DNA of 32,000 bases from Pseudodesulfovibrio piezophilus C1TLV30 (GTDB lineage: Bacteria; Desulfobacterota; Desulfovibrionia; Desulfovibrionales; Desulfovibrionaceae). Under the pieces are notes generated by a model. It saw only the letters and a program-made list of their open reading frames with translations, searched no databases and was not told the DNA's origin. This document shows positions 4,474 to 19,028 of this stretch, piece by piece (positions within the stretch are counted from its first letter, which is position 1; every line of letters starts with the position of its first letter). A program made the translations under genes and the position numbers. The DNA lies in the NCBI RefSeq assembly GCF_000341895.1, contig NC_020409.1:2880001-2912000 (forward strand). The letters are read 5' to 3'.

Positions 4474-4486
4474 TCCAATGAGAAAC

Positions 4487-4583: not shown

Positions 4584-4585
4584 CT

Positions 4586-5017
4586 ATGAAGTGCAATTCA
4601 AGCCTATGCCATACAAAATGGGACTGCAAGTATCATGTTGTGTGGATACCGAAATGTCGGCGTAAGGTATTGTTTGGCAAGTTGAAAAACTACTTGGGCG
4701 AGGTGTTCCACAAGCTCGCACGTCAACGTGAATGTATGATTTTGGAAGGGCATTTATGCATTGATCATGTGCATATGTACATCGCCATTCCTCCCAAATA
4801 CTCTGTGGCACAAGTAGTTGGTTATATAAAAGGTAAGAGCGCAATACACATAGCGCGTGAAGTCCAAAATCGCGCAAGGGGATTTGCAGGGCAAAGCTTC
4901 TGGGCGCGTGGTTACTATGTGACCACGGTTGGACGAGACGAAAAGGTAATAAGGGAATACATCCGCAAACAAGAACATGAAGACAAGCGGGTGGAGCAGT
5001 TGAAATTCCGCCTTTAG
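4586..5017 (+). CDS. tnpA: IS200/IS605-family Y1 (HUH) transposase TnpA
   Basis: 143-aa ORF with N-terminal WDCKYHVVWIPKCRRKVL, the HUH motif HVHMYI, YIKGKSA, and a C-terminal catalytic Tyr context REYIRKQE. Confidence 0.92.
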   Translation: MKCNSSLCHTKWDCKYHVVWIPKCRRKVLFGKLKNYLGEVFHKLARQRECMILEGHLCIDHVHMYIAIPPKYSVAQVVGYIKGKSAIHIAREVQNRARGFAGQSFWARGYYVTTVGRDEKVIREYIRKQEHEDKRVEQLKFRL

Positions 5018-5057
5018 GCGGTTCTTAAAGCCACTTTGAGTGGCTCACAAGCTCAAG

Positions 5058-5076
5058 CCCCCGGCTTTGCCGGGGG
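5058..5076 (+). repeat. Right subterminal hairpin of the IS200-like element
   Basis: Perfect 8-bp stem (cccccggc / gccggggg) with a ttt loop, preceded by a second small hairpin agccact-ttg-agtggct (5029-5045). Confidence 0.55.
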
Positions 5077-5478
5077 TGTTATGACTTTGAAAATAGGTTA
5101 TAATTGAGGATGTAAATATGTTTTTCGTAGCTTTAGGGCTTCTCAATCAAGTTTGGGCAAGTGCGATGGATGCGTTGCCATAATGAGGAGCTAGAGGGCG
5201 TGATGCTTCCGTCTGAAGGCTGGGGGCATGTTACAAAAGTGCATGAAAACAAGGACTGTTCGCTGAAATGGTCTCAGCAAATTCTCGATAACATTGTGAG
5301 CATCATGGTTTAAAAACTGAGATCAAAGAGTCTTTGCCTTTAGATTTGATTCTTGGTTCCCAATCTTAACATCCGCAAACTGTCGGAATATTTTATTCAA
5401 TCAGATTCCAACTTCCTATAGTTGTTCCGGCACTCGTCGATTCAAGCGAAAGGTAACTCGTTCGTATTGTCGTGAGAA

Positions 5479-7476
5479 CTAATCGCAAGCTTTAAGTTCA
5501 AAGCAAAATGCATTTTGATATGTCTCTAGAACTTTCTCGACTGCGTATTGGGGGTTTTTTTCAAATTCATATTTCTTTAGTAATGCCCGCACAGCTGAAC
5601 AAACTTTCTCATCTTTGTATAACGTTATAGTTGAGCGGTTCTCTAAATCAAGGAAGGGACGAAGATATTCCAATTCAGTAGTTTTGAAGTTGCTAGGATG
5701 AGGAAAAGGTAGGATTTTATGGGTACAACCTGGCAGTTTGTTATAAACTGTTAAGGGGTCGATAAAGCTGTTTTCAGTCACCTTCTGAAAAGCAGGAGAT
5801 ACTTTTTGTGAACTTAATTCTTCTGTGGCTGAAAAAATAAGACTGAGAAAATCAAGTAATAATTTTCTATCATACAGCAATCTGCTGACAACTTTAAAAT
5901 ATAATTTTGAAAAGCCTCCAGAAAGCAGCCTTCCCCAGTGTGGTTCTTTTGTGTGTTTTTTTATTAATGCATCTCTACTGGGATGTAATTCTGTGTCCAG
6001 CGAGTTTATAATATCGCGCGCAAAATGGCCAAGTCGTGTCTCTGTGCCCTTCAATTCAGTAATTTTCTCAACAAGGCTGTTAAGGACATGTATGGGGTTA
6101 ATCTTATTAGTGTGGTGGAGGTTTGAGAGAAAAGGCTTGAGGTGTCCAGAATTCCAGCAAAATCCTACTAGGCATTGTAAAAGTCGCATTGATTTAAATT
6201 CGTTAGGGCTCATATCCTTTGAGCCACTTGCAACTTCTTCACATTCAACAACTTTGATTCCTTGATATTCGCCATAGCAGCCAGATTTTAGCCTAAAACT
6301 TGTTTGGTATTGATATTTTTTGCGTTCTTCTTCCAAATTTAGTTGAGTCCCTGGCAAAAAGAGAAGTGTCCTATCCCCAATGACGTCAAATCCTAGTTCG
6401 AAGCATTTTTCAAGGGTTTTCAGGTGGTTTGCATATGTTTCTCCTGGAAGTCCTCCTATTAAATCCGTGCCGACTTGGATATGTTTTTTTTTGTATGTGG
6501 AGAGGTAGTCCTTGAGGTCATCTTGTTGAATATTTCGCCTACCTATATTTTCTTGCACTACTGGGTCTAAGGACTGAACTGCCAATAAAACTCGTTCTCC
6601 TTCTCCGAGCAGTTTGACTATTTCATAATTGGTTTCAGCATTGTTTTTGCTCGACCAGAAGACGATACGTTGAAGAATTGGGTTTACATCTTTTATGGAT
6701 CTAAGGGCCTTAGCTATTTGGATGTCTCGTTTGAATATCCCGAAGTTCCCATCGGCAAGAATATAGGTTGGGAGAGTGGGGAATTTGGTCCCCACGTAGT
6801 CTATTTCTGCGAGAATTCTCTCCATAGGAAATTTTCTGGTTTGATTTAAAAAGGATATTCCCCAAGCACAATAGGAGCATGAGTATGGACAACCTCTATT
6901 GGATTCGAAGAGAGGTATAAGTCCTTGATCAAGGAAAGAATCAAGATACCCTGCGAGGTATGGTGATGGGAGGTGGCTTAGATCATCAAAGAGCTGGGGG
7001 GGGCGATAGCATAGGTTTCCATGTCGAAGGAATGCAACTCCAGGATGTAATGTATTGAGTTGGTTAGATGGAGAAGTGATGTCTTTTACAATATTCGCGA
7101 AGGCCATCTCTCCTTCAAATACGATAGCAGAATCGATGGCAGGATTTTTTGTTAAGAAATTGGTAAGAAAGGTAAGGTCATTTTCTATTGATGGACCTCC
7201 TACGGATATGTGGGTGGCTGGGGAGAGTTGCTTAATCCTTTTTGCCACTGAGACGCTTAGGTTCCAGTTCCATTCGTACATAGAAAGCCCGACTACAGCC
7301 GGGGAGGCTTGTTTCACCGCGTCGAGTAGATCTGCTGTGTATTTAAAAAGTGTTACGGGGGGAGGAGTTCCTTGTGTGCTCAGATAAGCAGCAAGGCTTG
7401 CGGCGTTTAATGGGACAGAGTAATTCCCTGGGAGAGTGTTGTGAACCAGATCTGCAATGTATATTTTTTTCTTCAT
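5479..7476 (-). CDS. B12-binding-domain radical SAM protein (class B rSAM-like); substrate unknown
   Basis: The ORF track gives 5479..7482 with a TTG start; the first ATG (MKKKIYIADL) is at 7476. The N-terminal ~140 aa look like a Rossmann/B12-binding region (VVGLSMYEWNW ... ISVGGPS). The radical SAM CX3CX2C motif CPYSCSYC is encoded at 6868-6891. The C-terminal ~250 aa carry no motif I recognise. Confidence 0.8.
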   Translation of the reverse strand: MKKKIYIADLVHNTLPGNYSVPLNAASLAAYLSTQGTPPPVTLFKYTADLLDAVKQASPAVVGLSMYEWNWNLSVSVAKRIKQLSPATHISVGGPSIENDLTFLTNFLTKNPAIDSAIVFEGEMAFANIVKDITSPSNQLNTLHPGVAFLRHGNLCYRPPQLFDDLSHLPSPYLAGYLDSFLDQGLIPLFESNRGCPYSCSYCAWGISFLNQTRKFPMERILAEIDYVGTKFPTLPTYILADGNFGIFKRDIQIAKALRSIKDVNPILQRIVFWSSKNNAETNYEIVKLLGEGERVLLAVQSLDPVVQENIGRRNIQQDDLKDYLSTYKKKHIQVGTDLIGGLPGETYANHLKTLEKCFELGFDVIGDRTLLFLPGTQLNLEEERKKYQYQTSFRLKSGCYGEYQGIKVVECEEVASGSKDMSPNEFKSMRLLQCLVGFCWNSGHLKPFLSNLHHTNKINPIHVLNSLVEKITELKGTETRLGHFARDIINSLDTELHPSRDALIKKHTKEPHWGRLLSGGFSKLYFKVVSRLLYDRKLLLDFLSLIFSATEELSSQKVSPAFQKVTENSFIDPLTVYNKLPGCTHKILPFPHPSNFKTTELEYLRPFLDLENRSTITLYKDEKVCSAVRALLKKYEFEKNPQYAVEKVLETYQNAFCFELKACD

Positions 7477-7854
7477 TAGCAATGGGCAAATAGAGCCAAT
7501 TTTATTATTTTTGTTTGTCGAGGAGCGAATTTACAGCTTCGATGAGGGGAAGATCTCGTTGCGTAGTATAAATGGAGAGGATGACTTGGTTCTTTCTTTA
7601 GACACAGTTTCTCTACTTTAGCTATACCATATTGTAAATATAGTGCTCCTTCTCCTTTTGATCTGTCAAGAGAAGGCCATGAGGCATGTCATGAGATTCT
7701 CAGAGGTAATTCTGGTGTAAGTATGTGGTCATATTAGGGTGCATTGGATTACATCCATAATTTTTAGTTTGTTGTTGTCTTATTGGCCGTGGCAGAAAAA
7801 TTTATATAGTTTGAGCCGTTTCCTGCGCTTTGTAAATCAAAAGGACAGTATCAT

Positions 7855-8301
7855 ATGGAGGGAACATTGATGATCGTACCAGCTCGGGAAGGTGATTTTA
7901 GTGAAATTGTCGAAGTTTGGGAAGCTTCGGTACGGGCGACGCATTTGTTTTTGTCTGAAGAAGATATTCAATATTATAAGCAGCTTATTCTCAATGAATA
8001 TCTGGCTGCCGTGACATTGTTTTGTGCAAAGGATGATCAGGGCGTAATTCAGGGGTTTTTGGGAACGTCAGGGCAAAGTATAGAGATGTTGTTTCTGGCT
8101 CCACGCGCGCGAGGGAGCGGATTAGGGAGGAAATTGGTGCTTTTTGCTACTGACGAATTGGGGGCGACAAAGGTTGATGTGAATGAACAGAATCCGGCAG
8201 CAGTCGGATTTTATGAGCATATGGGCTTCAAGACCACGGGGCGCTCTCCGGTTGATGGCATGGGCAAGCCATTTCCTTTGCTACATATGGAGAAAGAGTG
8301 A
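7855..8301 (+). CDS. GNAT-family N-acetyltransferase (small, stand-alone)
   Basis: 148-aa ORF with acetyl-CoA motif A RARGSGLGRKL and C-terminal NPAAVGFYEHMGF. An alternative ATG at 7870 sits 7 nt after GGAGGG and may be the true start. Confidence 0.85.
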   Translation: MEGTLMIVPAREGDFSEIVEVWEASVRATHLFLSEEDIQYYKQLILNEYLAAVTLFCAKDDQGVIQGFLGTSGQSIEMLFLAPRARGSGLGRKLVLFATDELGATKVDVNEQNPAAVGFYEHMGFKTTGRSPVDGMGKPFPLLHMEKE

Positions 8302-8637
8302 CGGTGATGGCACCATGATTTTTTGCGGGCAAGTGTCAATTTTCATGGGATGATTGGTCTGGTCGGCGAAAAGGTGGTATGCGGCACTGTCTCTTGTCTT
8401 GGCTTGGCTTGAAAATTCTTTTGCTTTATTTTTTCAACGTATCAACAAGTTTTTGATACCCAGTTTTTTTTGACGTTGTTGGTCTGGTGTTCGAGTTGTG
8501 ACTTGCGGCCTTTAAAAAAATTCTTCCTGAATCGTTTTTTCTATTTACCTGACCTTATACAACGGATATTGGCCGTCTGTCTTTTGTGTGCATGACACGC
8601 AGTTGGTGGGCAATTTTACTCCCAGGAGGGAGGTTGT

Positions 8638-10629
8638 ATGAGTGCGCAATGCAAGGCTGTGCCCGATTCCGGCTTCAGCCCAGTGGTTCGAGAGGCTGTT
8701 CCGGCTGATCTGGATTTTTTGGAAAGTCTGGAGAGGGACTGCTTTAGTGGAACCAGACAAAGTTCCAGGCAAAGTTTGCGGCACAGTCTTACGAGTGCCA
8801 GCCAGATGGTTTTTATCGCCGAAAGGAAAAAAGGAAGAAAACAAGGCGTTCCGACCGGGGCTGCTGTTGTCTTTGAGTACAAGCGGTCGCTGCGTGTTTA
8901 CTCATTGGCGATTCTGAAAGAACACAGGATGCAGGGGATGGGCGAAGCGCTCATGCAGCATATTATTGATTTCGCTCTCAGCCATGGCTATGAACGGATA
9001 TCCCTTGAAGCAGACGCTGGGAACCCGAAACTTGTTGATTGGTACCGCCAATTCGGCTTTGAAGGCACCAAGGCTATGCCCGATTATTATGGTCCGGCAG
9101 AAGCTGCGCTTCGTATGGTTTTGCTCCTGGCCAACAAAGGACGGACATCGGAGCGTATCGTCATTGTCGTCGATGATTCCAATTTGGCAAAAAAATGTGT
9201 TTCAGGCATTCAGTTCTGCTCTGCTCCAGAGTATCTTTCCGATACCAATTTTTCCAATTCAAATCGGTTTCATATTCTGAATCTGTGCAATTCCTATAAG
9301 ACCCACTCCATGGGCTATTACGTTTCCCTGCTGGCTTCAGCGAGAAATCACAGAATTACGCCATCGGTCATGGCGGTGAAGGATGGGACAACACCAAGCA
9401 TCGCCCAGAGCCTGCTGGATGAGATTCGTGAGTATACCCATGACAAGCTGCCCTCTCATGATGGGAGCGTGGTGGAACTGACCATCGTGCTGGGTAAGAC
9501 TGATGACCCTCATCATGGCGAGTTGGCTCGAAAATTGTTTTCTCTTTTTTCCATACCTTTTTTTTCCATCACGATGGAGCGGCATGATTCCTGGAGATTT
9601 AAGAAATTGAAAACGCTTCATCTCAAGCAAGTCGCGCATCAACATCCAGAGCTCTTGCAGGATGCATTGACCTGTTATTGTGAGAAAAAACGATATAATC
9701 GTCCACGACTCAAGAGCTATAAATACGATCTCGCCATCTTGATAAACGAGGAAGAGGGGACGCCTCCATCGTGCCCATTGGCATTGGAGAAATTTCGCAA
9801 GGCTGCCGAGCGTGTTGGGTTTTTCGTTGAATTTATTACCAAAGCCGATCATCGGCGGTTATGTGAGTTTGATGCTCTTTTTATGCGGGAGACAACCGCA
9901 ATCGAAAACCACACGTATGAGATGGCTCGCCATGCCTATACCGAAGGATTGGTTGTCATTGATGATCCCTGGTCGATACTGCTGTGTTCCAACAAGGTGT
10001 ATCTTCATGAACGGTTGGCCAATGCAGGAGTCTGCCAACCTCGGGGTTGGCTTTTGACCAGAAAAGGATGCTCGGACGAACTTCTCAAATCCTTGCCATT
10101 GCCGGTGGTTTTGAAGTTGCCGGAGAGTTCTTTTTCCCAGGGGGTCTACCGGGTGTGTTCCCTTGAGGAACTCCGCTCAAAGTTGCATGAGATGTTTCGG
10201 CAAACCGATCTGGTTATAGCCCAGGAGTTTCTGACTTCTGATTATGACTGGCGCATCGGGCTGCTCGACAACATGCCTTTGTTCGCATGCAAATATTACA
10301 TGGCAAACAATCATTGGCAAATTTACAACTGGCAGTCGAGCGAGTCCGAGGAGTTCAGCGGCCGATCGGAGACCATTCCCGTTAGTCAGATTCCGGCCCA
10401 TATCCTTAAGGCGGCAGTTAATGCCTCGTCGCTTATCGGTAACGGGCTGTACGGAGTGGACCTGAAAGAGGTCAACAAGAAAGCTTACGTCATAGAGGTC
10501 AACGATAATCCGAATATTGATGCCGGGATCGAAGACTTGTTGTTGGGGGATGAGTTGTACGAACGCATCATGCATTCACTCTACAACCGCATCGAAGCTG
10601 AACGTCACCAGGTTCGATATCTTTACTGA
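8638..10629 (+). CDS. Fusion protein: N-terminal GNAT acetyltransferase, central RimK-like N-terminal region, C-terminal RimK-type ATP-grasp ligase (Ngg / NAAG-synthetase-like architecture)
   Basis: 663-aa ORF preceded by GGAGGGAGG. GNAT motif A is HRMQGMGEALMQHI, with a WYRQFGF tail. ATP-grasp elements are VVLKLPESSFSQGVYRV, LVIAQEFL, YDWRIGLL and YVIEVNDNPNID (Mg/ATP-binding E-x-N). Confidence 0.8.
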   Translation: MSAQCKAVPDSGFSPVVREAVPADLDFLESLERDCFSGTRQSSRQSLRHSLTSASQMVFIAERKKGRKQGVPTGAAVVFEYKRSLRVYSLAILKEHRMQGMGEALMQHIIDFALSHGYERISLEADAGNPKLVDWYRQFGFEGTKAMPDYYGPAEAALRMVLLLANKGRTSERIVIVVDDSNLAKKCVSGIQFCSAPEYLSDTNFSNSNRFHILNLCNSYKTHSMGYYVSLLASARNHRITPSVMAVKDGTTPSIAQSLLDEIREYTHDKLPSHDGSVVELTIVLGKTDDPHHGELARKLFSLFSIPFFSITMERHDSWRFKKLKTLHLKQVAHQHPELLQDALTCYCEKKRYNRPRLKSYKYDLAILINEEEGTPPSCPLALEKFRKAAERVGFFVEFITKADHRRLCEFDALFMRETTAIENHTYEMARHAYTEGLVVIDDPWSILLCSNKVYLHERLANAGVCQPRGWLLTRKGCSDELLKSLPLPVVLKLPESSFSQGVYRVCSLEELRSKLHEMFRQTDLVIAQEFLTSDYDWRIGLLDNMPLFACKYYMANNHWQIYNWQSSESEEFSGRSETIPVSQIPAHILKAAVNASSLIGNGLYGVDLKEVNKKAYVIEVNDNPNIDAGIEDLLLGDELYERIMHSLYNRIEAERHQVRYLY

Positions 10630-10644
10630 TGGAGGGAGGCCCTC

Positions 10645-11250
10645 ATGATTCATCCACATACCACGGTACGAACAGTTTCCCCATGTATCGGCGTCGGTGT
10701 CTTCGCCACTCATCCCATTGCCAGGGGGACCATTGTGGTCGTCCGTGACAGTCTTGATACCTGCCTGACTCGGCAGGAATTCTGTGCGCTTCCGGAGGCG
10801 GTTCGTCTTTCCATGGAGACGTATCTTTATCATGATAAATGCGGCAATCTGATTTTGAGTTGGGATCATGCCCGATATATGAATCACCACTGCCAGAGCA
10901 ACACGATGATGACGGATTACGGTTTGGAGCTTGCAGTCAGGGATATTGCGGCAGGTGAGGAACTGACCACCGAGTACGGCCTGCTTAATATCCAGGACCC
11001 GTATGAAATTTGTTGCCACTGTGAGAGCTGCCGAGAAGCACTGCGGCTTGATGATGTCGATACATATGGTGATGCCTGGGATGCGCTTGTGGAGGAAAAT
11101 CTGTTGCGTATTTTCGATCTGGAGCAACCATTGCTCGACCTGCTCGGGGCACAGCATCGGGCCAGGCTTGATGCCTTGGTTTCGGGGGAGGGTGCGTATG
11201 CATCCGTGAAAAATCTGAAGTGGCGGATTGGAGACTGCTCTGGCGAGTAG
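10645..11250 (+). CDS. SET-domain protein (putative lysine methyltransferase)
   Basis: 201-aa ORF starting 15 nt after the ATP-grasp fusion stop, with GGAGGGAGG in the gap. SET hallmarks are GVGVFATHPIARGTIV, RYMNHHCQSN (NHxCxPN-like) and EELTTEYG (ELxxxY), plus a Cys-rich post-SET-like CCHCESC. Confidence 0.8.
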   Translation: MIHPHTTVRTVSPCIGVGVFATHPIARGTIVVVRDSLDTCLTRQEFCALPEAVRLSMETYLYHDKCGNLILSWDHARYMNHHCQSNTMMTDYGLELAVRDIAAGEELTTEYGLLNIQDPYEICCHCESCREALRLDDVDTYGDAWDALVEENLLRIFDLEQPLLDLLGAQHRARLDALVSGEGAYASVKNLKWRIGDCSGE

Positions 11251-11323
11251 CCCTGTCCGGTCTCAGCAGAGAACAGTGAAAGGAGTCAGGGAACGGCAGA
11301 GTCGTGTTTCGAGATCTTTCGAG

Positions 11324-11366
11324 GACGGCAGCACTGGCTCCATGGGGGTGCTGCCGTCTTTTTTTT
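11324..11366 (+). terminator. Rho-independent terminator after the ATP-grasp/SET operon
   Basis: Perfect 11-bp stem gacggcagcac (11324-11334) / gtgctgccgtc (11348-11358), followed by a run of 8 T. It lies between convergent genes. Confidence 0.8.
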
Positions 11367-11371
11367 GTGTT

Positions 11372-12931
11372 TTATTCCGTTCTGATTACGGTGATTTTCT
11401 TTCGCGCCTTGAGTTCATAGATGTCCGGCCTGCGTTCATGCAGGGGACGGACACTGCCAAACTCCCTGATTTGTGACAGGCTGGCAAAATCCAGATCCGC
11501 TATAACCACTGTTTCCACGCCGGGGTCAGCCTCTCCGCTAAGAGACGGAATGGGAAATGCAAAGTCGCTCGGTGCGAAGATCGCTGACTGTCCATAGTTC
11601 AACAGATATGTCTTGACGCCCGGCAGGTTTCCCACGTTGGCCGCAATGACGGTATAAATCGAGTTTTCGATGGCACGAGCCTGTGCTGTGGCCCGTACTC
11701 GATGGTAGGCCCGTTTCTCATCGGTACTGAAAGGGACGAAGATGACTTCGGCCCCGGCCATTGCCAGGAGTCGGGAGGTTTCGGGGAACTCGATATCATA
11801 GCAGACCTGAATGGCTATGCGCCCCAGTGGGGTCTGGAAAACGCTCAAGCCTTCGCCGGGATGGATACCCCAGTCCTCACGCTCTCCTGGAGTGATGTGA
11901 AGTTTGTCTTGCGTGTATACATTGCCCGTAGGCGTGAAAAGGTGCCCGACATTGTAAAGCTTGCCGTCACGCAGTACGGGGTGGGAGCCACCAATGATAT
12001 GCAGATTGTATGTGCTAGCGAGCTCTCGAAACATGTCCAGATATTTGTCAGTCATTCCTGCCAGTTCCGCAACCGCTCTGCGTGGAGTCCACTCCGGGGG
12101 CATGGTGCTGAACATTTGTGCTGTGAACAGTTCGGGCAGGACCAGGAAATGACAGTGGTATGCGTCGGCCGTCACGACAAAAAACTCAACGGATTGCCGC
12201 AGATCTTCCCAGGATGATATCCTGCGCATTTGGTACTGAGCGGCGCAGACTCGATATTGGCGAACAGGGCGACGCAGAGGAGCACCCGCGATCTTGCGCC
12301 GAACCGGCTGGAAGTCCGGGTTGGGCATTTCCAGAAAGGTGGAGTAATTCAGACTGGAGTCGTCCTGGAGCAGGTCGAGGAAAACGCCCTTGACCCGATA
12401 TCCGGCCTTGAGGTGCGCATTGAGGGCAGAATCCTTCAGTTCACCTTTGGCGACCATCTCGACATATTCCTTGGCGGTCAGAATACCTTCCTGCTCGCTG
12501 TAATTCATTATGCGTCCATGGGCGATCATCCTGCTTAGATTGTAGCGCTTCATGATACGTTTTCGGTATTTATATATTTTCCCGGCTACTCCCTGGCCCC
12601 GGTATTCCGGTCGAACCGCGATATCTGCGCCATATAGGGTATCGCCGGTTGGGGTATGCGTGCTGAATGTCCCCCCTCCGGTGATCTCATCATAGCGATA
12701 CCAGTCAACGGATTCATCCAATTGGACGATGATGGAAGTCGCGTAGCCGATGATTTCTCCATCGCACTCAGCCAGGACTTGTCCTTCCGGGAAGGCGGCA
12801 AACTGCATGGCATATGTGCGCTCGTCGTAATGGTCGTCAAAATCGGGATAAGCCGCCTTTTGGCAGGCGACAATGGCCGGGAGATCATCCTCATTCCAAC
12901 TGCGAATTTTGATAGCCTTTCTTTTACCCAT
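11372..12931 (-). CDS. Fusion protein: N-terminal GNAT acetyltransferase, C-terminal carbon-nitrogen hydrolase (nitrilase superfamily)
   Basis: 519-aa ORF with ribosome-binding site GAGGAAAATC before the ATG. GNAT motif A is RPEYRGQGVAGKIYKY. The nitrilase Glu-Lys-Cys triad contexts are VLPELF, QDKLHITP and IQVCYDIEFPE. Confidence 0.85.
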   Translation of the reverse strand: MGKRKAIKIRSWNEDDLPAIVACQKAAYPDFDDHYDERTYAMQFAAFPEGQVLAECDGEIIGYATSIIVQLDESVDWYRYDEITGGGTFSTHTPTGDTLYGADIAVRPEYRGQGVAGKIYKYRKRIMKRYNLSRMIAHGRIMNYSEQEGILTAKEYVEMVAKGELKDSALNAHLKAGYRVKGVFLDLLQDDSSLNYSTFLEMPNPDFQPVRRKIAGAPLRRPVRQYRVCAAQYQMRRISSWEDLRQSVEFFVVTADAYHCHFLVLPELFTAQMFSTMPPEWTPRRAVAELAGMTDKYLDMFRELASTYNLHIIGGSHPVLRDGKLYNVGHLFTPTGNVYTQDKLHITPGEREDWGIHPGEGLSVFQTPLGRIAIQVCYDIEFPETSRLLAMAGAEVIFVPFSTDEKRAYHRVRATAQARAIENSIYTVIAANVGNLPGVKTYLLNYGQSAIFAPSDFAFPIPSLSGEADPGVETVVIADLDFASLSQIREFGSVRPLHERRPDIYELKARKKITVIRTE

Positions 12932-13202: not shown

Positions 13203-14267
13203 TCATATCCATTTTCTTTTTTTGAAATATGCCAGCATGACGGCGGCGACCGTGCCCATAATACCGAGCAGGATGAAATATCCATTCCTGTAGTGTAGTT
13301 CGGGCATGATTTCGAAGTTCATGCCATACACGCCTGCCAGAAAGGAAAGCGGGATAAAAATGGTGGCAAATACTGTCAAGAATTTCATGACGTCATTGAG
13401 CCTGTTGGTCACGGCCATGTTGTAACTGTTGAGATGGTCGTTGAGCATCTCTCGGTAGATGTCCACCGCATCCACAACCTGTTCCGCCATGTCGTGCAGG
13501 TCGCGAATGAATGGGGCTATCTGAGGCGTGATAATTTCGTTTTCTGTTTTTGCCAATTTCAGGATAATTTCACGCGCCGGGCGAACTGCTTTTCGGATAT
13601 ACGCCATTTCCCGCCTGTAGAGGTTGATCTCTTCCAAAAGGTCCGGGGTGGGATTGCCGAGAACCTCCTCATCAAATTCCTCGATCCTCTCTCCAAGGAT
13701 TTCAACTACCTTGAGGTAGTTTTCGAAAACGCAGTCAAGGAGTGTGTAGAGCAGGTAGTCCGCTCCAAGGCGACGCAGTCTGCCGGATTGCCTCCTGAGG
13801 CGTTCGCGGACCGGGTCAAAGACATCGCCGGGTTTCTCCTGAAAGGTGATCAGGCAGTTTCCGGTCAGCACGGCGCTCAGCTGTTCTGCATTGATCCGGC
13901 CTAGTTCTTCGTCCAGGGAGAGCATCTTGAGCGTGACGAACAGGGCATCGGGAAATTCTTCAAGCTTGGGGCGTTGTCCCGTATTGACGATATCCTCCAG
14001 AATCAGGGAAGAGAGATCAAACAGGTTTCCCACCTGTGACATCAGATCTGGGACATGGAGTCCGTCTATGTTGAGCCAACTGGTGGATTGGCTGTCCGTG
14101 CAAGCCGAGAGAGTGTCCAGGGAGTCGATAAAATCATCCTTGAGCATCTCCTGGTCATAGTCGATCAACCGCAGACGGGGAGTGTCGGTCTTTTGCTGTC
14201 CGACGAAAATGAGTGACCCCGGTGATCGTCCGGTCTCCTGGTCGCGTTTTTTCAGGAAACGAGCCAT
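13203..14267 (-). CDS. corA: CorA-family Mg2+/Co2+ transporter
   Basis: 354-aa ORF preceded by a GGAGGA ribosome-binding site. It has two C-terminal TM helices flanking the signature YGMNFEIMPEL (GMN motif). Confidence 0.92.
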   Translation of the reverse strand: MARFLKKRDQETGRSPGSLIFVGQQKTDTPRLRLIDYDQEMLKDDFIDSLDTLSACTDSQSTSWLNIDGLHVPDLMSQVGNLFDLSSLILEDIVNTGQRPKLEEFPDALFVTLKMLSLDEELGRINAEQLSAVLTGNCLITFQEKPGDVFDPVRERLRRQSGRLRRLGADYLLYTLLDCVFENYLKVVEILGERIEEFDEEVLGNPTPDLLEEINLYRREMAYIRKAVRPAREIILKLAKTENEIITPQIAPFIRDLHDMAEQVVDAVDIYREMLNDHLNSYNMAVTNRLNDVMKFLTVFATIFIPLSFLAGVYGMNFEIMPELHYRNGYFILLGIMGTVAAVMLAYFKKRKWI

Positions 14268-14407
14268 GTACTTCCTCCGATATCCTTTCTATTAAGGGAG
14301 AATGAATTCATTGCTTCCGGCAATGGATTTGATTGTCTTATCATATTAATAATACCCAGACTTGGGAACTGTTTTGATCATGGTTTAATGAAGAAAAGGA
14401 GGGGGGC

Positions 14408-15475
14408 ATGGATTGGAGTAATGGTTCGGGCGTGATGCTCAGGGCGTGGTTCGCGGTGTTGGTGCTGCTCGGCATATATATCGCCGCTCGTTGGTTGAAG
14501 AAGGGGAATGCAAAAGGCTGGCGGGAATTGCTTGATATGCTGACAGTCTCCATGAAAAGAAAGATCATTCTTTTCATGGTGATGCTTGGTCTTGTGGTGT
14601 GCTTGGCAGTGTTGGCTCCTCTTGCTCGATTTGATGCCGGGGTGGATGTTTTTGTCACGGCCTTTTTAGGAACCGCCTGGATCATACTCGTTGCATGGGC
14701 ATTGACTTTATTGCTGACGGTGCTGACCGGGTTGGTTCAGTGGAAGTATGATATTGGTGTGGAGGACAATCTGGGTGCGCGTCAGATAAATACCAAGGTA
14801 CGGGTTCTGCATCGAATTGCTGCCGTTCTTGTCTGGCTTGGAGCTCTTGCCGGAATATTGATGCAGTTCGAGCGATTTCGGGCTCTTGGTGGGGCCATGC
14901 TGGCCTCGGCGGGGGTCTTGAGCATTGTTCTCGGGCTTTCTGCACAAAAGACTTTTGGCGCGGTTATAGCCGGAGTGCAGATAGCTCTGACCCATCCCAT
15001 CAACCTGGATGACGTGGTTATCGTGGAAGGAGAGTGGGGGCGGATCGAGGAGATCACATTTACTTATGTAGTAGTCAAGATATGGGATTTGCGGCGCATG
15101 GTTGTCCCCATCAGCTATTTTGTTGAGACACCCTTTCAGAACTGGACAAAAAAAAGCGCTGAAATAATCGGGACCGTGACTTTGCATGTGGATTATACCA
15201 CGCCGTTGCAGCCACTGCGCGAAGAACTCAAGTCCTTGTGTGAGGCTTCCGGAGCCTTGTGGAATGGCAAGACCTGCGTGCTTCAGGTGACGGAGGCAGG
15301 GGGAGAGAGCATGACAGTCAGAGCGTTGGTCAGTTCCCCCGGAGCCTCAGCCGCATGGGACCTCCGATGCATGGTGCGTGAGGGATTGATAGATTTCCTG
15401 CGACGGAACTACCCCGAGTGCCTCCCCCGTCGGCGTGTGGTTTTGCAGAATGGGGCCATGGAAAAAGAGGGATAG
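14408..15475 (+). CDS. MscS-family mechanosensitive ion channel
   Basis: 355-aa ORF with an AGGAGG ribosome-binding site and several N-terminal TM helices. The MscS pore/beta-domain pattern is LGLSAQKTFGAVIAGVQIALTHPINLDDVVIVEGEWGRIEEITFTYVVVKIWDLRRMVVPISYF. Confidence 0.85.
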   Translation: MDWSNGSGVMLRAWFAVLVLLGIYIAARWLKKGNAKGWRELLDMLTVSMKRKIILFMVMLGLVVCLAVLAPLARFDAGVDVFVTAFLGTAWIILVAWALTLLLTVLTGLVQWKYDIGVEDNLGARQINTKVRVLHRIAAVLVWLGALAGILMQFERFRALGGAMLASAGVLSIVLGLSAQKTFGAVIAGVQIALTHPINLDDVVIVEGEWGRIEEITFTYVVVKIWDLRRMVVPISYFVETPFQNWTKKSAEIIGTVTLHVDYTTPLQPLREELKSLCEASGALWNGKTCVLQVTEAGGESMTVRALVSSPGASAAWDLRCMVREGLIDFLRRNYPECLPRRRVVLQNGAMEKEG

Positions 15476-15502
15476 AAAGACGGATTTGGGGAGGGAGAGC
15501 AT

Positions 15503-15607
15503 ATGGTGGTACTTCTCGTTTTAGTCTTACTCTTTCGAGTGCTTTTCGGGCATGGAGACGTCGGATTTGATCGGGAGTTGGAGCGCCTGCTTCCCCTTTT
15601 ATTCTGA
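15503..15607 (+). CDS. Candidate 34-aa small hydrophobic protein (unannotated size class)
   Basis: ATG 15503 sits 5 nt after GGAGGGAGAG. It translates to MVVLLVLVLLFRVLFGHGDVGFDRELERLLPLLF, with TGA at 15605-15607. A weak hairpin plus T-run follows at ~15618-15650. There is no homology evidence. Confidence 0.25.
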   Translation: MVVLLVLVLLFRVLFGHGDVGFDRELERLLPLLF

Positions 15608-15698
15608 GATGGCAAGAGGACAGCCTCGGGATGGAAAGACTGTCTTTTTAACACGCCAGGGTTGATCCTGTCGTCAGTTTGAAACAAGAGTGTGTATT

Positions 15699-16724
15699 AT
15701 GCAAACGGTCTTCATTTGGTGTGGCATTGTTTTTTGTCTGACCCAGTCAGCCATCTTCTCCGGTCTCAATCTCGCCTATTTCAGTCTCAGCAGGCTTCGC
15801 TTGGAAGTGGAGGCATATTCCGGCAATCGGCGGGCAGCCAAGGTCTTGGCGTTGCGGCAGGAGCCGAATCTTCTTTTATGCACCATTCTCTGGGGGAATG
15901 TCGGCATCAACGTCCTGCTGACCCTGCTCTCGGAGTCGGTCATGACAGGCGTCGCCTCTTTTGCCTTTTCCACGTTTGTCATCACCATTGTTGGTGAAAT
16001 TTTGCCACAGGCCTACTTCTCACGCCAGGCTCTTTTGATTGGAGCAACGCTCGTGCCGGTCATCCGTTTTTATCAGGTGGTGCTCTATCCTCTGGCCAAA
16101 CCCGCTTCAATGATGTTGGATCGGCTGGTGGGCAGGGAAAATATCGAGTATTTCAAGGAGAACAAGATTCGTCATCTGCTGAAGATGCACATTGATTCCA
16201 CTGACGCCGACATCGATGAAATCGAAGGGATGGGAGCCATGAATTTCCTGACACTTGACGACATCGAAGTCTGTCAGGAAGGAGAGCCTATTCAGATTCA
16301 GAGTATTATAGGGCTTCGTTTTGAGAATGGTCGGCCAATTTTTCCCTCGGACGTTGCAACCTTCGTGGAACAGGTCAATTCTTCCGGTGAGAAGTGGGTT
16401 GTCCTGACGGATAGCCAGGACCGTCCCCGCCTGTTGCTCGATGCCGATGGATATCTGAGAAACGTCATGAAGGGCGGGGTTGTCTCGCCTGCGGATTATT
16501 GCCACCTACCTATTCTCGTTCACAATGATCATATCCGACTGGGTGAAGTGCTGAACAGGCTTGAGGTTCACCCGGTGTCACCGGAGGACGATGTCATTGA
16601 CGCAGACACCATACTTGTCTGGACAGCGCGTCATCGGCGCATCATTACCGGAGCCGATATATTCGGGCGGTTGATGCGTGGCATCTCTCGGGTTCGACGA
16701 AGCGGTCGCCCTTCGGCGACGTGA
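15699..16724 (+). CDS. CNNM/DUF21-domain membrane protein (CorB/CorC-type putative Mg2+/Co2+ efflux family)
   Basis: The ORF opens at GTG 15690; the first ATG is at 15699. The DUF21-type N-terminus reads SAIFSGLNLAYFSLSRLRLEV ... ILWGNVGINVLL ... GEILPQAY. The C-terminal half looks like a degenerate CBS region, with no obvious CorC_HlyC tail. Confidence 0.75.
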   Translation: MQTVFIWCGIVFCLTQSAIFSGLNLAYFSLSRLRLEVEAYSGNRRAAKVLALRQEPNLLLCTILWGNVGINVLLTLLSESVMTGVASFAFSTFVITIVGEILPQAYFSRQALLIGATLVPVIRFYQVVLYPLAKPASMMLDRLVGRENIEYFKENKIRHLLKMHIDSTDADIDEIEGMGAMNFLTLDDIEVCQEGEPIQIQSIIGLRFENGRPIFPSDVATFVEQVNSSGEKWVVLTDSQDRPRLLLDADGYLRNVMKGGVVSPADYCHLPILVHNDHIRLGEVLNRLEVHPVSPEDDVIDADTILVWTARHRRIITGADIFGRLMRGISRVRRSGRPSAT

Positions 16725-19028
16725 TCAGGATTCTTTTTTCATCAAGTGCTCTGCAAGGGCCGGGGCAGTCTTGAAATGAATATCCATCTGTGGGAAGGCA
16801 ATTTCAATATCGGCTTCCCGGAATGCCGCGTCAATGGCGAAACGCAGTTCGGATGTCGCTTTGACTGTGTTGTCAATGTCGTCAATCCATATCCTGAGAA
16901 TAAAGTCGAGGCTGCTGGCACCAAAATCATTGAACAGAACCTGGGCTGCGGGGGTTTTCAGGACATGCGGGTGTTCCTGGGCAAGAGCCAACAGGGTTTG
17001 TTCTACCTTTCTTGTCTCTGATCCGTAGGCCACACCCACGAGGATATCCCGTCTCAGTGTCGGGTTATTCTTGGTCCAGTTGGTCACCTGTGTGGTCACG
17101 AGATCCGAGTTGGGTATCATGATGACGGCATTTTCGAATGTCTCCACCAGGGTTGTGCGGATATTGATTTTTTTGACCGTGCACCAAACCTGCCCCATCT
17201 CAATCACATCTCCTTGCTGGATGGATCTGCCGAAAAGCAGGATCAGGCCGCTGATGAAGTTGTTGACAACATTTTGCAAGCCGAAACCGATACCGACACT
17301 GAGACCTCCGGCGATGACAGTGATGCTGGTCAGGCTGACTCCGAGGATGCGCAGGGCTGCCAGAGTGAAAAGAGACCAGACAGCGTAGGAAAAAAGTGTC
17401 TGGATTGATGGGACAGCCCCGCGTTTGGCCCTGGGCCATCGGTTGCCGACGTGTTCGAGAGAGACCTTGAAAGTGGAAATGCAGCTTTTTGTCAGGAAAA
17501 AGAGAATTGCGAGGGCGATGACATCTTTGAGATAGAGGGACTGGCCCCCAAAGGTTGCCTTCATTTCTAGCACTGTTGCTATGGTCTTTTCACCAAAGAA
17601 ATCGACAAGCCAGAGAAATGTCATGACAAAAGCGACAGCCCAGCCAAAAGGGACCAGCAGACTCCGAACCAATCCCTTTTGGAATTTCGCACTCCTTTCA
17701 GTTTCCAGGGACAGACATTGTGCCCAGACATTCCCGAGCGCCCGAATGAAAACTCCCAGGCACCAGAGGAGTGTCAAGAGACAGGCCAAGCGGCCATAGC
17801 CGAAGAGGGTGATGGCAAACAAAGGAGCCAGTGCCCCGCCGCGCATGGCCGTGACCGTGAGTTTCTGTCCTTTTTTTCTCCATGCATGAAAAGAATCGTT
17901 CGCCCACAAGATAAGGACAATGAGCATGAACGTCACTGTCGTGGTCCGGCTTGGCATATAGAGTATGAGTAACTGCGTGGAGACCACGAAGAGAAAGGCC
18001 AACCGAGTGTGCCCGTAGGTGGCAAGATACCTGTCGGCACAGATGTGTTTCGCAAGCTTGAGAATACTGAGCAGGAAAAGTCCGGCAGCAAGGGCGGCCA
18101 GTGAATCCATGCCATTGGGAAAGGTGAAGCGGATGGCGAGAAAGAGTGAAAGGCCCACGACCGCTGTCAGAAAGTACAGATTGATTCGGCCGTGATTTTT
18201 GTTTCTGAGCGCCGGGCTGGGCAGCAACTTGAGGAGACGTTTGGACGAAAGACCCACGGCCGCAAGCGTTATCAGGATGAAGATAAATTTGATCCCCCCG
18301 TCATGGAGTGAGATAAGGGCTGATTCAAATTCTGTTTGCTTCAGTATCAACCAGTTCTTGCCGAGAGCGGGACTTTGCCAGAAATCAAGACTGAAGACGG
18401 GCATCTTGCCCACAAGAAGATATTGTATCCATATGTCGTATAGTGTTTGAGTGTCTTCCTTGGGGGATTCCAGTTTTCCGTTCAATCGTTTTATCTGACG
18501 GAGCAATGAATTCATTTTGGCCAGGTGTGTCTCGGTCTGTTTTTCCAGCCGGGAGACCCTCTGTCTCATGTTTTGTGCGGAGTGGCGGAGCATGGCCCTG
18601 GAATCCTGCGGCAGGGTCGATGTCATCTGCCCATAGGACTGCAAAAATTCCAGTCGGGCGTTTCCTGCTCGTGCAGCTTCATGCAGCGTGGCAGTCAGTT
18701 GATCGCACTGGTCGAGGATGTGACGAATTGAGGCCTCATAGTGTTTGCGATCAATGGGTGAGGTGCTTGAGGTGTTTTTGGCAATACCCGCTTTCTGGTA
18801 ACTTTCCAGAAGTCCTCCGAGTTGGGTCTCGATTGTCATGAGAAGGGATGCTGTCCTTTCGGCTGCATTTTCCTCTTCTGATAGAAGCAGGGAAAAAGAT
18901 TCGATCTGATAGCGAAATATTTCCTGGCTTGAATTTTCTGCCCCATATGCACGATTCAGGGGACTCAGCCCCAGAGTGAGAAAGCAGAGGAGTGTTGCTA
19001 GAATGGGCAAGACTTGGCGAGATCTCAT
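16725..19028 (-). CDS. Large MscK/MscM-like mechanosensitive channel
   Basis: 767-aa ORF with a signal-like N-terminus, a ~200-aa helical/coiled-coil region, and about ten TM helices. The C-terminal MscS core is GLQNVVNNFISGLILLFGRSIQQGDVIEMGQVWCTVKKINIRTTLVETFENAVIMIPNSDL. Confidence 0.85.
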   Translation of the reverse strand: MRSRQVLPILATLLCFLTLGLSPLNRAYGAENSSQEIFRYQIESFSLLLSEEENAAERTASLLMTIETQLGGLLESYQKAGIAKNTSSTSPIDRKHYEASIRHILDQCDQLTATLHEAARAGNARLEFLQSYGQMTSTLPQDSRAMLRHSAQNMRQRVSRLEKQTETHLAKMNSLLRQIKRLNGKLESPKEDTQTLYDIWIQYLLVGKMPVFSLDFWQSPALGKNWLILKQTEFESALISLHDGGIKFIFILITLAAVGLSSKRLLKLLPSPALRNKNHGRINLYFLTAVVGLSLFLAIRFTFPNGMDSLAALAAGLFLLSILKLAKHICADRYLATYGHTRLAFLFVVSTQLLILYMPSRTTTVTFMLIVLILWANDSFHAWRKKGQKLTVTAMRGGALAPLFAITLFGYGRLACLLTLLWCLGVFIRALGNVWAQCLSLETERSAKFQKGLVRSLLVPFGWAVAFVMTFLWLVDFFGEKTIATVLEMKATFGGQSLYLKDVIALAILFFLTKSCISTFKVSLEHVGNRWPRAKRGAVPSIQTLFSYAVWSLFTLAALRILGVSLTSITVIAGGLSVGIGFGLQNVVNNFISGLILLFGRSIQQGDVIEMGQVWCTVKKINIRTTLVETFENAVIMIPNSDLVTTQVTNWTKNNPTLRRDILVGVAYGSETRKVEQTLLALAQEHPHVLKTPAAQVLFNDFGASSLDFILRIWIDDIDNTVKATSELRFAIDAAFREADIEIAFPQMDIHFKTAPALAEHLMKKES

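Follow-up and report, generated by a model that had tools for sequence, protein, structure and literature searches.

A two-gene operon that joins a fused acetyltransferase/amino-acid ligase to a SET-domain methyltransferase, previously unstudied and conserved in several phyla, is carried by Pseudodesulfovibrio piezophilus, a sulfate-reducing deep-sea bacterium. The two genes lie at positions 8638-11250 of the plus strand of the window (the whole 32-kb stretch of DNA analysed here). The ligase→SET arrangement is a real operon, co-inherited within one clade, and its chemistry most likely combines acetylation, amino-acid ligation and methylation. We found no description of this pairing in the searchable literature.

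Operon organization

The three open reading frames, the 15-nt gap with its ribosome-binding site, the terminator and the Glu-Lys-Cys triad described in the initial annotation are all present (Table 1). Judged by its sequence signals, 8638-11250 is a two-gene operon with its own putative promoter and predicted terminator. The conserved element upstream of the ligase gene would act as the promoter (a strict sigma-70 scan makes no call for it), and the conserved 5′-UTR motif, for which an Rfam search gave no match, lies a few nucleotides before the ligase ribosome-binding site. The terminator hairpin has a ΔG of -26.9 kcal/mol (z -3.6; an equally good fold in 0 of 200 shuffles). We assign it to the plus strand because no U-run follows the hairpin on the minus strand; a consensus terminator scanner overlooked it, the loop exceeding 8 nt.

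Table 1. Features of the ligase–SET locus and of the convergent neighbouring gene (window coordinates)
Feature	Position	Strand	Basis or detail
Promoter-like element (putative)	8544-8572	+	TTTACC at 8544-8549, spacer 15-17 nt, GATATT/TATTGG; upstream-region alignment of five Desulfovibrionaceae
5′-UTR motif GGTGGGCAATTTT	8605-8617	+	Common to the window, P. hydrargyri and M. salexigens
Ligase ribosome-binding site AGGAGGGAGG	8624-8633	+	
Bifunctional ligase, 663 aa (GNAT + RLAN + RimK-like ATP-grasp)	8638-10629	+	ORF and domain profiles
RimI-like GNAT, ~aa 15-165	8680-9132	+	Acetyltransf_1, aa 27-141, 1.8e-12
RLAN, aa 197-342	9226-9663	+	PF14401, 3.6e-43; 147 bits (cutoff 25)
RimK-like ATP-grasp, ~aa 355-657	9700-10608	+	RimK/Dala_Dala_lig_C/ATP-grasp_3, aa 450-628
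Ligase stop codon	10627-10629	+	TGA
Intercistronic gap, 15 nt	10630-10644	+	
SET ribosome-binding site GGAGGGAGG	10631-10639	+	
SET-domain methyltransferase, 201 aa	10645-11250	+	PF00856, 1.5e-10
Intrinsic terminator (predicted)	11322-11366	+	13-bp G+C-rich stem, then T8; hairpin 11322-11359, T8 11359-11366
GNAT + carbon-nitrogen hydrolase fusion (GNAT-nitrilase), 519 aa, convergent	11372-12931	-	Acetyltransf_1 and CN_hydrolase PF00795, 2.8e-32

Domain composition of the two proteins

Profile searches recovered every domain that had been predicted, RLAN included. The ligase is 100% identical to the P. piezophilus protein P0001, and its invariant residues include G100 and G102 of the GNAT acetyl-CoA loop and K493, R539, D608, E620 and N622 of the ATP-grasp domain. 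Its structure model is of moderate quality (pLDDT 69.6); in Foldseek searches the ATP-grasp part is nearest to RimK (5zct, 9.5e-14), ArgX and LysX, and the GNAT part to RimI (5isv, TM 0.87). The ligase nevertheless belongs neither to Ngg, the identity that the initial annotation had singled out for a model test (18 bits; cutoff 569), nor to RimK proper (rimK_fam, TIGR00768, 61.4 bits against 143.4), and its score for the rimI equivalog is 41.6 bits against 86.4.

The SET protein consists of a core (aa 1-115), a post-SET cysteine cluster (around aa 123-130) and, at the C-terminus, a helical extension specific to the family (aa 137-191), with N80, H81, C83, Y111, C124 and C129 invariant. Its model has a pLDDT of 89, and the best Foldseek matches are ASH1L, MLL, NSD and vSET.

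Distribution of the ligase and its pairing with SET

The ligase family is large and uncharacterised, with more than 2939 matches in many phyla, and the GNAT + RLAN + ATP-grasp architecture is found in nearly all of the 120 homologues listed. The gene mostly stands alone, no neighbour cluster recurring in more than eight of the 80 loci, and the recurrent neighbours include no RimA/RimB-type (EAL or retropepsin) partner. The initial annotation had noted that the canonical NAGGN partners are missing; indeed, neither an AsnO-type amidotransferase nor an M42 peptidase is encoded anywhere in the 32-kb window. It had also considered an ordinary RimK in an rpsF-linked context, and no rpsF/rpsR link was found across 1.83 Mb of related loci. 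Gene context gave a single clue to an osmotic role, the proximity of MscS channels, but these show no enrichment around the ligase. The organism names at ligase loci are overwhelmingly those of marine or saline taxa, a bias that a habitat-linked metabolite would fit better than a universal housekeeping modification.

The ligase–SET adjacency, on which the initial annotation had built its proposal, is conserved among relatives and in several phyla. The clade in which it occurs comprises Desulfovibrionaceae, Desulfuromonadaceae, Sedimentisphaerales/Limihaloglobus, some Verrucomicrobiota and some Bacteroidota, with order and strand kept at loci L001, L003, L074, L043, L081, L084, L167, L168, L085, L086, L088 and L158. 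The gap measures 9-37 nt where the genes are directly adjacent, the exception being L043, where an MgtC gene lies in between. Identity to the window ligase and identity to the window SET rise and fall together (Spearman 0.89, p=1e-4). As lower bounds, a ligase cluster shares its contig with a SET match in 19 of 43 cases at ≥60% identity, 10 of 43 at 50-59% and one of 22 below 50%. Six adjacent SET genes were observed in 84 loci, against about 0.05-0.15 by chance (enrichment ∼50-fold). Both families are mostly found apart, paired loci making up four of the 80 scanned ligase loci and four of about 52 SET loci, and genes for an ABC exporter, a PAD_porph-type deiminase and FtsY are also repeatedly found beside SET. 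M. salexigens and Coraliomargarita, for example, possess the ligase with no adjacent SET, and neither was found in the SET match list. SET thus appears dispensable, an accessory within one clade rather than a partner that the ligase always has.

Proposed function and alternative explanations

Since its catalytic motifs are intact and the gene stands alone in most lineages, the ligase would be self-sufficient. Its GNAT part may acetylate the α-amino group of an amino acid or peptide, and the ATP-grasp part would then use ATP to join a further amino acid, probably of the Glu or Asp type, to the carboxylate through an acyl-phosphate, following the chemical logic of Ngg (N-acetyl-Gln-Gln) and of NAT8L with RIMKLA (N-acetyl-Asp-Glu). 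The product that we favour, tentatively, is a small N-acetylated di- or oligopeptide, to which the co-transcribed and co-inherited SET enzyme would add a methylation step in the clade of the window genome. The methyl acceptor would be the product or a substrate of the ligase, with BurB as the small-molecule SET precedent; a less likely acceptor is a protein that handles the ligase product, which grades into a protein-modification scheme. We infer this order of reactions, the class of substrate and the role of SET from domain content and context. Against a peptide product, the nearest characterised relatives (RimI/NAA50, RimK/LysX/ArgX and ASH1L/MLL) all act on proteins, and SET retains the post-SET Zn cluster usually found in protein-lysine methyltransferases. 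Moreover, context offers no evidence for an osmolyte pathway, because the ligase has no consistent association with a transporter, an amidotransferase or a peptidase.

A protein target is the competing reading, in our view only somewhat less likely than a small peptide. The RimI-like part would acetylate a protein N-terminus, the RimK-like part would add Glu to a protein C-terminus, on one target protein or on two partners, and SET would methylate a lysine of the same target or complex. The obvious candidates would be the bS18/bS6 heterodimer; in E. coli, RimI modifies bS18 and RimK modifies bS6. By NCBIfam and by structure, the best matches are indeed RimI and RimK (also 9mto, a bS18 acetyltransferase, for the former and 7qys for the latter), the next closest relatives, LysX and ArgX, likewise modify a protein C-terminus, and SET resembles a canonical protein-lysine SET enzyme with a post-SET domain. 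The missing rpsF context is neutral here, because in E. coli, to our knowledge, rimI and rimK likewise lie apart from rpsR and rpsF. However, both scores fall far under their equivalog cutoffs, and `RimI-like' is the generic best match of many small GNATs. We know of no precedent for a fusion of enzymes acting on opposite ends of a protein, whereas the precedent for a GNAT + ATP-grasp fusion, Ngg, is a small-molecule enzyme. A patchy, habitat-biased distribution would also be unexpected of a ribosome modification; no candidate lysine set the SET-linked ligases apart, and no candidate substrate gene is linked.

Two further explanations concern the gene neighbourhood. That the adjacency lacks functional meaning, ligase and SET being unrelated genes travelling together, seems very improbable: although the families mostly live apart and SET keeps other company, the two genes show this order, strand and short gap in four phyla or more, the pairing survives between completely different flanks, and co-varying identities and enrichment over chance argue in the same direction. 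The initial annotation had gone further and treated the convergent GNAT-nitrilase as part of one module with the pair, and this we regard as unlikely. As such a partner it would serve, for example, N-acetyl peptide turnover or deamidation, or a further acyl transfer. Three Pseudodesulfovibrio-clade genomes retain the arrangement ligase→SET←GNAT-nitrilase, with both flanks differing between the window and L165/L167; a convergent ligase←GNAT-nitrilase adjacency is independently present on the Bacteroidales contig L079, where the GNAT-nitrilase is linked to an MgtC gene, as SET is in L043; and two independent adjacency events in about 90 loci compare with an estimated 0.05 or so expected by chance. 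Yet the gene is convergent and lies behind the operon terminator, and its adjacency is limited to that contig and to one Pseudodesulfovibrio subclade (the window, L165/L167 and L170). It lies 1.3 Mb from the ligase in Pseudodesulfovibrio sp. CP182342 and about 250 kb from it in Maridesulfovibrio FT414 (both complete genomes), is not in the ligase flanks of P. hydrargyri, and in L171 has neither ligase nor SET in its own flanks. It occurs at none of the 80 SET loci and at one of the 80 scanned ligase loci. Between Pseudodesulfovibrio and Maridesulfovibrio the GNAT-nitrilase keeps 87% identity and the ligase 59-64%, the former being much the better conserved, and the GNAT-nitrilase family is widespread, including phyla not among the ligase matches listed; this strong conservation and wider range suggest an independent housekeeping role. 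Its gene neighbourhoods also include an AstE/AspA deacylase operon (L169) and, in L165 and L170, a divergent polyamine cluster. Its triad, E267/K343/C377, is intact in the window protein, and one subclade carries K→A and C→S replacements. It is a separate, highly conserved, putative amidase-type enzyme whose adjacency here is lineage-specific; it is probably only loosely associated with the cassette and not core to it. Because this adjacency is restricted and the genes are unlinked in four other Desulfovibrionaceae, we describe a two-gene cassette and not a three-gene module.

Comparison with known systems

Ngg (TIGR03103) is the N-acetylglutaminylglutamine synthetase of the NAGGN osmolyte pathway in Sinorhizobium and Pseudomonas. 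Like the window ligase, it combines a GNAT acetyltransferase and an ATP-grasp ligase in one polypeptide, and its chemistry, N-acetylation with dipeptide bond formation, would be expected of the window ligase too. The alignment between them is, however, limited to a 60-residue GNAT stretch, the window ligase has a RimK-like ATP-grasp domain with RLAN inserted, and its partner is a SET methyltransferase instead of AsnO and the M42 peptidase. RimK is the poly-α-L-glutamate ligase of bS6, and RIMKLA and RIMKLB are N-acetylaspartylglutamate and β-citrylglutamate synthetases. RimK is closest to the window ATP-grasp domain by profile (TIGR00768 is the best NCBIfam match) and by fold, with the ATP- and Mg-binding residues conserved, but RimK and RIMKLA/B lack the N-terminal GNAT and RLAN. 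A computational study of 2009 by Iyer, Abhiman, Burroughs and Aravind reportedly defined the RLAN-containing RimK-like ATP-grasp proteins (PF14401); the window ligase is a full member of this uncharacterised family.

For the GNAT-nitrilase, the closest solved structure is mouse Nit2 ω-amidase (4.2e-19), which shares the CN_hydrolase fold and the Glu-Lys-Cys triad. It reaches no equivalog threshold (65 against 410 for AguB, N-carbamoylputrescine amidase, and 73.5 against 500 for nitrilase), and the fused divergent GNAT sets the protein apart from Nit2 and AguB; nitrilase branches with an N-terminal RimI-like domain are said to have been noted by Pace and Brenner in 2001.

As for SET, BurB, the Burkholderia SET-domain methionine S-methyltransferase of DMSP synthesis (PDB entries 9l4t/9l4v; PMC12542666), establishes that a SET fold is able to methylate a free amino acid in an osmolyte/metabolite pathway. 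Both are small bacterial SET enzymes, but the two sequences match weakly and over aa 68-131 only (E 0.0047), BurB ranks 24th among the structural matches, no better than histone methyltransferases, and the post-SET cysteine cluster and helical C-terminal extension of the window SET are features that BurB does not share. The best matches in both sequence and structure are the eukaryotic SET + post-SET protein-lysine methyltransferases ASH1L, KMT2/MLL, NSD and vSET. The NHxC motif, the catalytic tyrosine and the post-SET cysteines are conserved between the window SET and the ASH1L/MLL-type enzymes, whereas the window SET is a stand-alone protein of 200 aa, free of chromatin-reader domains and encoded in an amidoligase operon of free-living anaerobes.

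Organization of the ligase–SET operon

The ligase gene, which encodes a GNAT + RLAN + RimK-like ATP-grasp fusion, and the SET gene follow each other on the same strand, and the 15 nt gap between them carries GGAGGGAGG in a translational-coupling-style arrangement. The operon ends with a strong terminator, a hairpin followed by T8 (ΔG −26.9 kcal/mol, z −3.6), behind which lies the convergent gene of the GNAT-nitrilase, a GNAT + CN_hydrolase fusion. Each of the three proteins has a 100% identical database entry from P. piezophilus. The ORFs, domains, gap, terminator and catalytic triad described in the initial annotation were all borne out by ORF calls, Pfam, folding and alignment, and the Acetyltransf, RLAN, RimK, SET and CN_hydrolase families that it expected were all matched in Pfam (see the table). 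The operon encodes three catalytic domains with intact motifs: an acetyl-CoA-dependent N-acetyltransferase, an ATP-dependent carboxylate–amine ligase and a SAM-dependent methyltransferase.

A promoter-like element and a 5′-UTR motif, GGNGGGCAAYTTT, are conserved upstream of the ligase in Desulfovibrionaceae; both are also present in M. salexigens, which is without SET. The motif has no Rfam match, and neither a riboswitch nor any other known RNA was found in the 336 nt leader or the rest of the window.

Positions 1–8000 of the window have a G+C content of 38–46%, compared with about 50–54% downstream, and are probably an island gained by horizontal transfer, whose end lies just upstream of the ligase locus. 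The small stand-alone GNAT encoded upstream of the ligase was rejected as a part of the system, as none of the 80 scanned loci has it beside the ligase. On the other side of the GNAT-nitrilase, four consecutive genes of ion or osmotic homeostasis span positions 13203–19028. Further downstream, the cyclase ORF overlaps by 71 nt the mechanically called start of the solute-binding protein ORF; the true start of the latter gene is probably further downstream.

Features of the window and of related loci (window coordinates unless a locus or residues are given; L numbers are related loci from other genomes or contigs)
Feature	Position	Strand	Remarks
GT4 glycosyltransferase	921–2039
MBOAT acyltransferase	3076–4473
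IS200-type Y1 transposase	4586–5017
KedN5-like B12-radical-SAM methyltransferase	5479–7482
Small stand-alone GNAT	7855–8301		PRK10514 acetyltransferase, 127.9 bits, just under the cutoff of 134
Promoter-like element	8544–8572
5′-UTR motif	8605–8617
Ligase ORF	8638–10629	+	663 aa
Ligase, GNAT	aa 27–141		Pfam
Ligase, RLAN (PF14401)	aa 197–342		Pfam, 3.6e-43, 147.2 bits, cutoff 25
Ligase, RimK/D-Ala-D-Ala-ligase-type ATP-grasp	aa 450–628		Pfam
SET ORF	10645–11250	+	201 aa
Terminator hairpin	11322–11359
GNAT-nitrilase ORF	11372–12931	−	519 aa
CorA	13203–14267	−
MscS-like channel	14408–15475	+
CNNM/CorC-type protein	15690–16724	+
Large MscS/MscK-like channel	16725–19028	−
dCache/HAMP adenylate/guanylate cyclase ORF	19285–21504
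Solute-binding protein ORF	21434–22888		mechanically called start
MgtC-family protein, Draconibacterium	L043 8971–9438
MgtC-family protein, Bacteroidales contig	L079 2840–3298
PF04371 deiminase, metagenome locus	L108 4567–5781
Divergent polyamine cluster at GNAT-nitrilase	L165 1158–6348; L170 2456–7637		SpeA arginine decarboxylase, CANSDH, NspC, agmatinase
Deacylase, GNAT-nitrilase and MscS genes, Maridesulfovibrio FT414	L169 5932–10116

Domains and family membership of the ligase

The RLAN domain, reportedly defined in computational work (the amidoligase paper of Iyer and coworkers from 2009), sits directly N-terminal to an ATP-grasp domain of RimK-like type, with the GNAT at the N-terminus. 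Members of the RLAN family have this order of RLAN and ATP-grasp, often with a GNAT in front, and the full architecture is common to nearly all 120 homologues among the matches listed. The ligase does not belong to Ngg, the synthetase of N-acetylglutaminylglutamine (NAGGN) in a pathway induced by osmotic stress: the TIGR03103 (trio_acet_GNAT) model, singled out for testing in the initial annotation, scores 18.1 bits against an equivalog cutoff of 569 (E = 8e-4), with only residues 81–143, in the GNAT, aligned. The same annotation had noted that the partners of the NAGGN pathway are missing here, and Pfam agrees: no AsnO-type amidotransferase or M42-type peptidase domain occurs in any window ORF, nor are these proteins among the recurrent neighbours of the 80 homologous loci.

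Canonical RimK (TIGR00768) is the best ATP-grasp family model, yet its score of 61.4 bits over residues 393–627 is below the subfamily cutoff of 143.4; likewise, the best GNAT match, RimI, reaches 42 bits with a cutoff of 86. A canonical RimK/S6 context found no support in these scores or in the neighbourhoods: rpsF and rpsR are absent from the window and from 171 related loci (1.83 Mb), and no EAL or retropepsin (rimA/rimB-type) partner was found among the recurrent ligase neighbours. The neighbourhoods say little about bS6 as a substrate, as canonical rimK, linked to rpsF or rimA/rimB in some genomes, is often unlinked to rpsF too.

In PDB sequence and Foldseek searches, the latter with an AlphaFold model of pLDDT 69.6, the ATP-grasp domain is nearest to RimK, ArgX and LysX (PDB entry 5zct, 9.5e-14; also 7qys and 4iwx) and the GNAT to Escherichia coli RimI (TM 0.87) and NAA50-type N-α-acetyltransferases. 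RLAN is covered by no solved structure found in either search, and a fold assignment was abandoned, the model being poor at residues 206–249 and whole-model Foldseek returning ATP-grasp and GNAT matches only. The nucleotide/Mg residues of the RimK-type ATP-grasp fold are present (Lys493, Asp608, Glu620 and Asn622). Neither these residues nor the acetyl-CoA loop vary among 14 homologues that represent six phyla, so that both catalytic domains of the ligase look active.

The family comprises more than 2939 proteins at E ≤ 1e-10, with 587 confirmed loci in one-genome-per-species GTDB contigs. It is found in Desulfovibrionaceae, Desulfuromonadaceae, Kiritimatiellia, Verrucomicrobiota and Planctomycetota, and also in Spirochaetes, Bacillota/Izemoplasmatales and many Bacteroidota; the names point mostly to marine or saline taxa. 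In the searchable literature no experimental study of the family was found, and searches for RLAN/PF14401 gave nothing relevant. It has no universal partner gene: the top neighbour cluster occurs in at most eight of 80 loci, from which we take it that the ligase is normally self-sufficient and that SET is an accessory of one lineage. Linkage to MscS or osmotic genes looked suggestive in the window and in three related loci (L019, L020 and L082), yet MscS channels are not enriched near the ligase, at 0.62 per 100 kb compared with 0.70 in control SET loci, and this lead was dropped. A role in anti-phage defence was also discarded, with no PADLOC-DB family matching any of the four proteins.

The SET protein

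SET proteins are common in free-living bacteria, and we know of almost none with an established substrate; the characterized bacterial examples are mostly effectors by which pathogens act on the histones of the host, BurB being the chief exception. The SET protein of the operon matches PF00856 (1.5e-10, 41.8 bits, gathering score 22.4) and contains the NHxC motif and catalytic tyrosine, with Asn80, His81, Cys83 and Tyr111 invariant in 25 homologues. Its confidently predicted structure (pLDDT 89) can be superposed on ASH1L, MLL and vSET. It is a genuine SET + post-SET enzyme whose helical tail is specific to the family.

In fold and in sequence it is about as close to protein-lysine SETs as to the small-molecule SET BurB; the model fits histone methyltransferases and BurB to about the same degree, and the fold is therefore uninformative as to the class of substrate, protein or small molecule. 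BurB, a bacterial SET that methylates a free amino acid (PMC12542666), is matched with an E value of 0.0047 over 64 residues by the single sequence and of 1.2e-5 with a profile, and ranks 24th in the Foldseek list with an r.m.s.d. of 8.1 Å.

The subfamily is widespread (more than 522 metagenome loci) and has no universal partner, its top neighbour clusters occurring in at most eight of 80 loci. A Porphyromonas-type peptidyl-arginine/agmatine deiminase (PF04371) is encoded about 27 nt 5′ of subfamily members in four metagenome loci, including L108, and an ABC exporter 3′ of them in eight high-GC loci; the deiminase and the exporter are alternative partners of the SET family.

Conservation of the ligase–SET pairing

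SET follows the ligase in four of 80 genome loci, from Pseudodesulfovibrio, Sedimentisphaeraceae, Verrucomicrobiales and Draconibacterium. Seven further homologues were looked up and gave four more pairs (P. hydrargyri, Limihaloglobus, an uncultured Pseudodesulfovibrio and Maridesulfovibrio FT414), while the pairing is missing at the looked-up ligase loci of M. salexigens and Coraliomargarita. Order and strand are constant in all pairs and the gap is 9–37 nt, except in Draconibacterium, where a gene for an MgtC-family membrane protein (PF02308, 6e-31) lies between the two. The genes flanking the pair differ completely between genomes. With the 80 scanned loci and four look-ups taken together, SET is directly adjacent in six of 84 ligase loci, compared with about 0.05–0.15 expected by chance.

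When contigs were matched by length between the ligase and SET match lists, which yields lower bounds, at least 19 of 43 ligase clusters at ≥60% identity shared a contig with SET, at least ten of 43 at 50–59% and at least one of 22 below 50%; 16 of the contigs in common measure less than 20 kb. Moreover, identity to the respective window protein varies in parallel for ligase and SET (Spearman 0.89, p = 1e-4, n = 12), which is the pattern expected of a co-inherited or co-transferred cassette. In the reverse direction, a ligase lies upstream in only four of about 52 SET loci with enough upstream sequence. The adjacency of ligase and SET initially pointed out is thus conserved, but within one clade only. 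A comparison of SET-linked and SET-less ligases for distinguishing residues, lysines in particular, gave only differences that track the clade, none of them a lysine.

The pairing appears to be undescribed: literature searches for SET with RimK found nothing relevant, and the paper on the genome and proteome of D. piezophilus makes no mention of the ligase, SET or GNAT-nitrilase genes.

The GNAT-nitrilase neighbour

The third protein combines a GNAT with a CN_hydrolase domain (PF00795, 2.8e-32, 112.5 bits, cutoff 23.2) that has the Glu–Lys–Cys triad of the nitrilase superfamily (Glu267, Lys343 and Cys377). It reaches no NCBIfam equivalog threshold, which sets aside N-carbamoylputrescine amidase AguB (TIGR03381, 65.3 bits versus 410), archaeal nitrilase (NF040852, 73.5 versus 500) and deaminated-glutathione amidase (NF033621, 51.5 versus 355); its closest solved structure is Nit2 ω-amidase. 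Literature searches on GNAT-nitrilase fusions gave nothing relevant. Three homologues that are 62–64% identical to it (P0160, P0198 and P0233 in alignment A4) carry the correlated replacements K343→A and C377→S and keep Glu267, and one cluster of this subclade holds 38 member sequences; its members may be paralogues that are inactive or have altered chemistry.

The GNAT-nitrilase adjoins ligase–SET in the window, in L165 and L167 from uncultured Pseudodesulfovibrio and in L170 from a related assembly, whose contig ends inside SET. Its outer flank is a polyamine cluster in L165 and L170, including carboxynorspermidine dehydrogenase and decarboxylase (CANSDH and NspC), and CorA in the window. 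In one Bacteroidales contig (L079), ligase and GNAT-nitrilase are adjacent and convergent independently of these loci. Two independent events exceed the chance prediction, and we therefore keep a functional link to ligase–SET as a minor alternative, albeit an improbable one. Elsewhere the GNAT-nitrilase gene is unlinked: it lies 1.3 Mb from ligase–SET in Pseudodesulfovibrio sp. CP182342 and about 250 kb away in Maridesulfovibrio FT414, where it is found 44 nt downstream of a gene for an AstE/AspA-family deacylase, in an apparent operon with it, and upstream of MscS. There is no GNAT-nitrilase in the ligase flanks of P. hydrargyri, no ligase or SET in the flanks of the GNAT-nitrilase in L171, and no GNAT-nitrilase in any of 80 SET loci. 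Between Pseudodesulfovibrio and Maridesulfovibrio its identity is 87%, and that of the ligase 59–64%; it is widespread, including in the phyla Chloroflexota and Hydrogenedentota.

The GNAT-nitrilase is thus probably not a core component of the ligase–SET cassette. The tempting module of three genes proposed in the initial annotation is not supported, the third gene being convergent, past the terminator, unlinked in several relatives and absent from the 80 SET loci, and this enzyme is better treated as independent and very conserved. In L079 it adjoins an MgtC-family protein and in the window the Mg2+ channel CorA, which may reflect an Mg2+ theme or a coincidence.

Proposed mechanism and comparison with known systems

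The fusion of the GNAT to the ATP-grasp domain speaks for a single acceptor shared by the two. The GNAT would catalyse the N-α-acetylation of an amino acid or peptide, the ATP-grasp domain would ligate a second amino acid via an acyl-phosphate and, in this clade, SET would methylate the resulting N-acetyl di- or oligopeptide. Ngg and the NAT8L/RIMKLA pair likewise carry out N-acetylation and then amino-acid ligation. As the scheme matches their chemistry, we prefer, by analogy, a small N-acetyl di- or oligopeptide as the product, methylated by SET in this clade. A more far-reaching version, of low probability, has SET as a small-molecule methyltransferase acting on the N-acetyl-peptide product of the ligase or on its amino-acid precursor, with the operon making a methylated N-acetyl-peptide solute in marine anaerobes.

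The main alternative is the modification of a protein by the ligase–SET cassette. The nearest characterized relatives of the three domains (RimI/NAA50, RimK/LysX/ArgX and ASH1L/MLL) all act on proteins. Moreover, RimI modifies bS18 and RimK modifies bS6, and because these two proteins form a heterodimer, the fusion could be a ‘Rosetta stone’ joining RimI- and RimK-type modification of bS18/bS6, to which SET would add lysine methylation.

We know of no experimentally established product for the GNAT–RLAN–ATP-grasp ligases, in spite of thousands of sequences in many phyla. For both families, the conserved and tightly coupled operon supplies a concrete hypothesis of function that can be tested, that of one shared substrate which receives an acetyl group, a further amino acid and a methyl group. 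Strains of Pseudodesulfovibrio and Maridesulfovibrio exist in culture and offer a tractable model organism. Known peptide osmolytes form a small set, NAGGN and NAAG-like compounds, which would grow if the preferred N-acetyl-peptide product were a new solute. If SET acted on this product or its precursor, the pathway to a compatible solute or metabolite would be a new one, and action on a metabolite would make it only the second such SET after BurB; were the target a protein, bacteria would have a further, new system of multiple modification. We regard the pair as a GNAT/ATP-grasp amidoligase system in which SET serves as the tailoring enzyme. In Pfam, the ligase belongs to the RLAN/RimK-like family; by analogy, it would work in a manner similar to Ngg, RimK and RIMKLA, yet it falls outside both Ngg and RimK proper.
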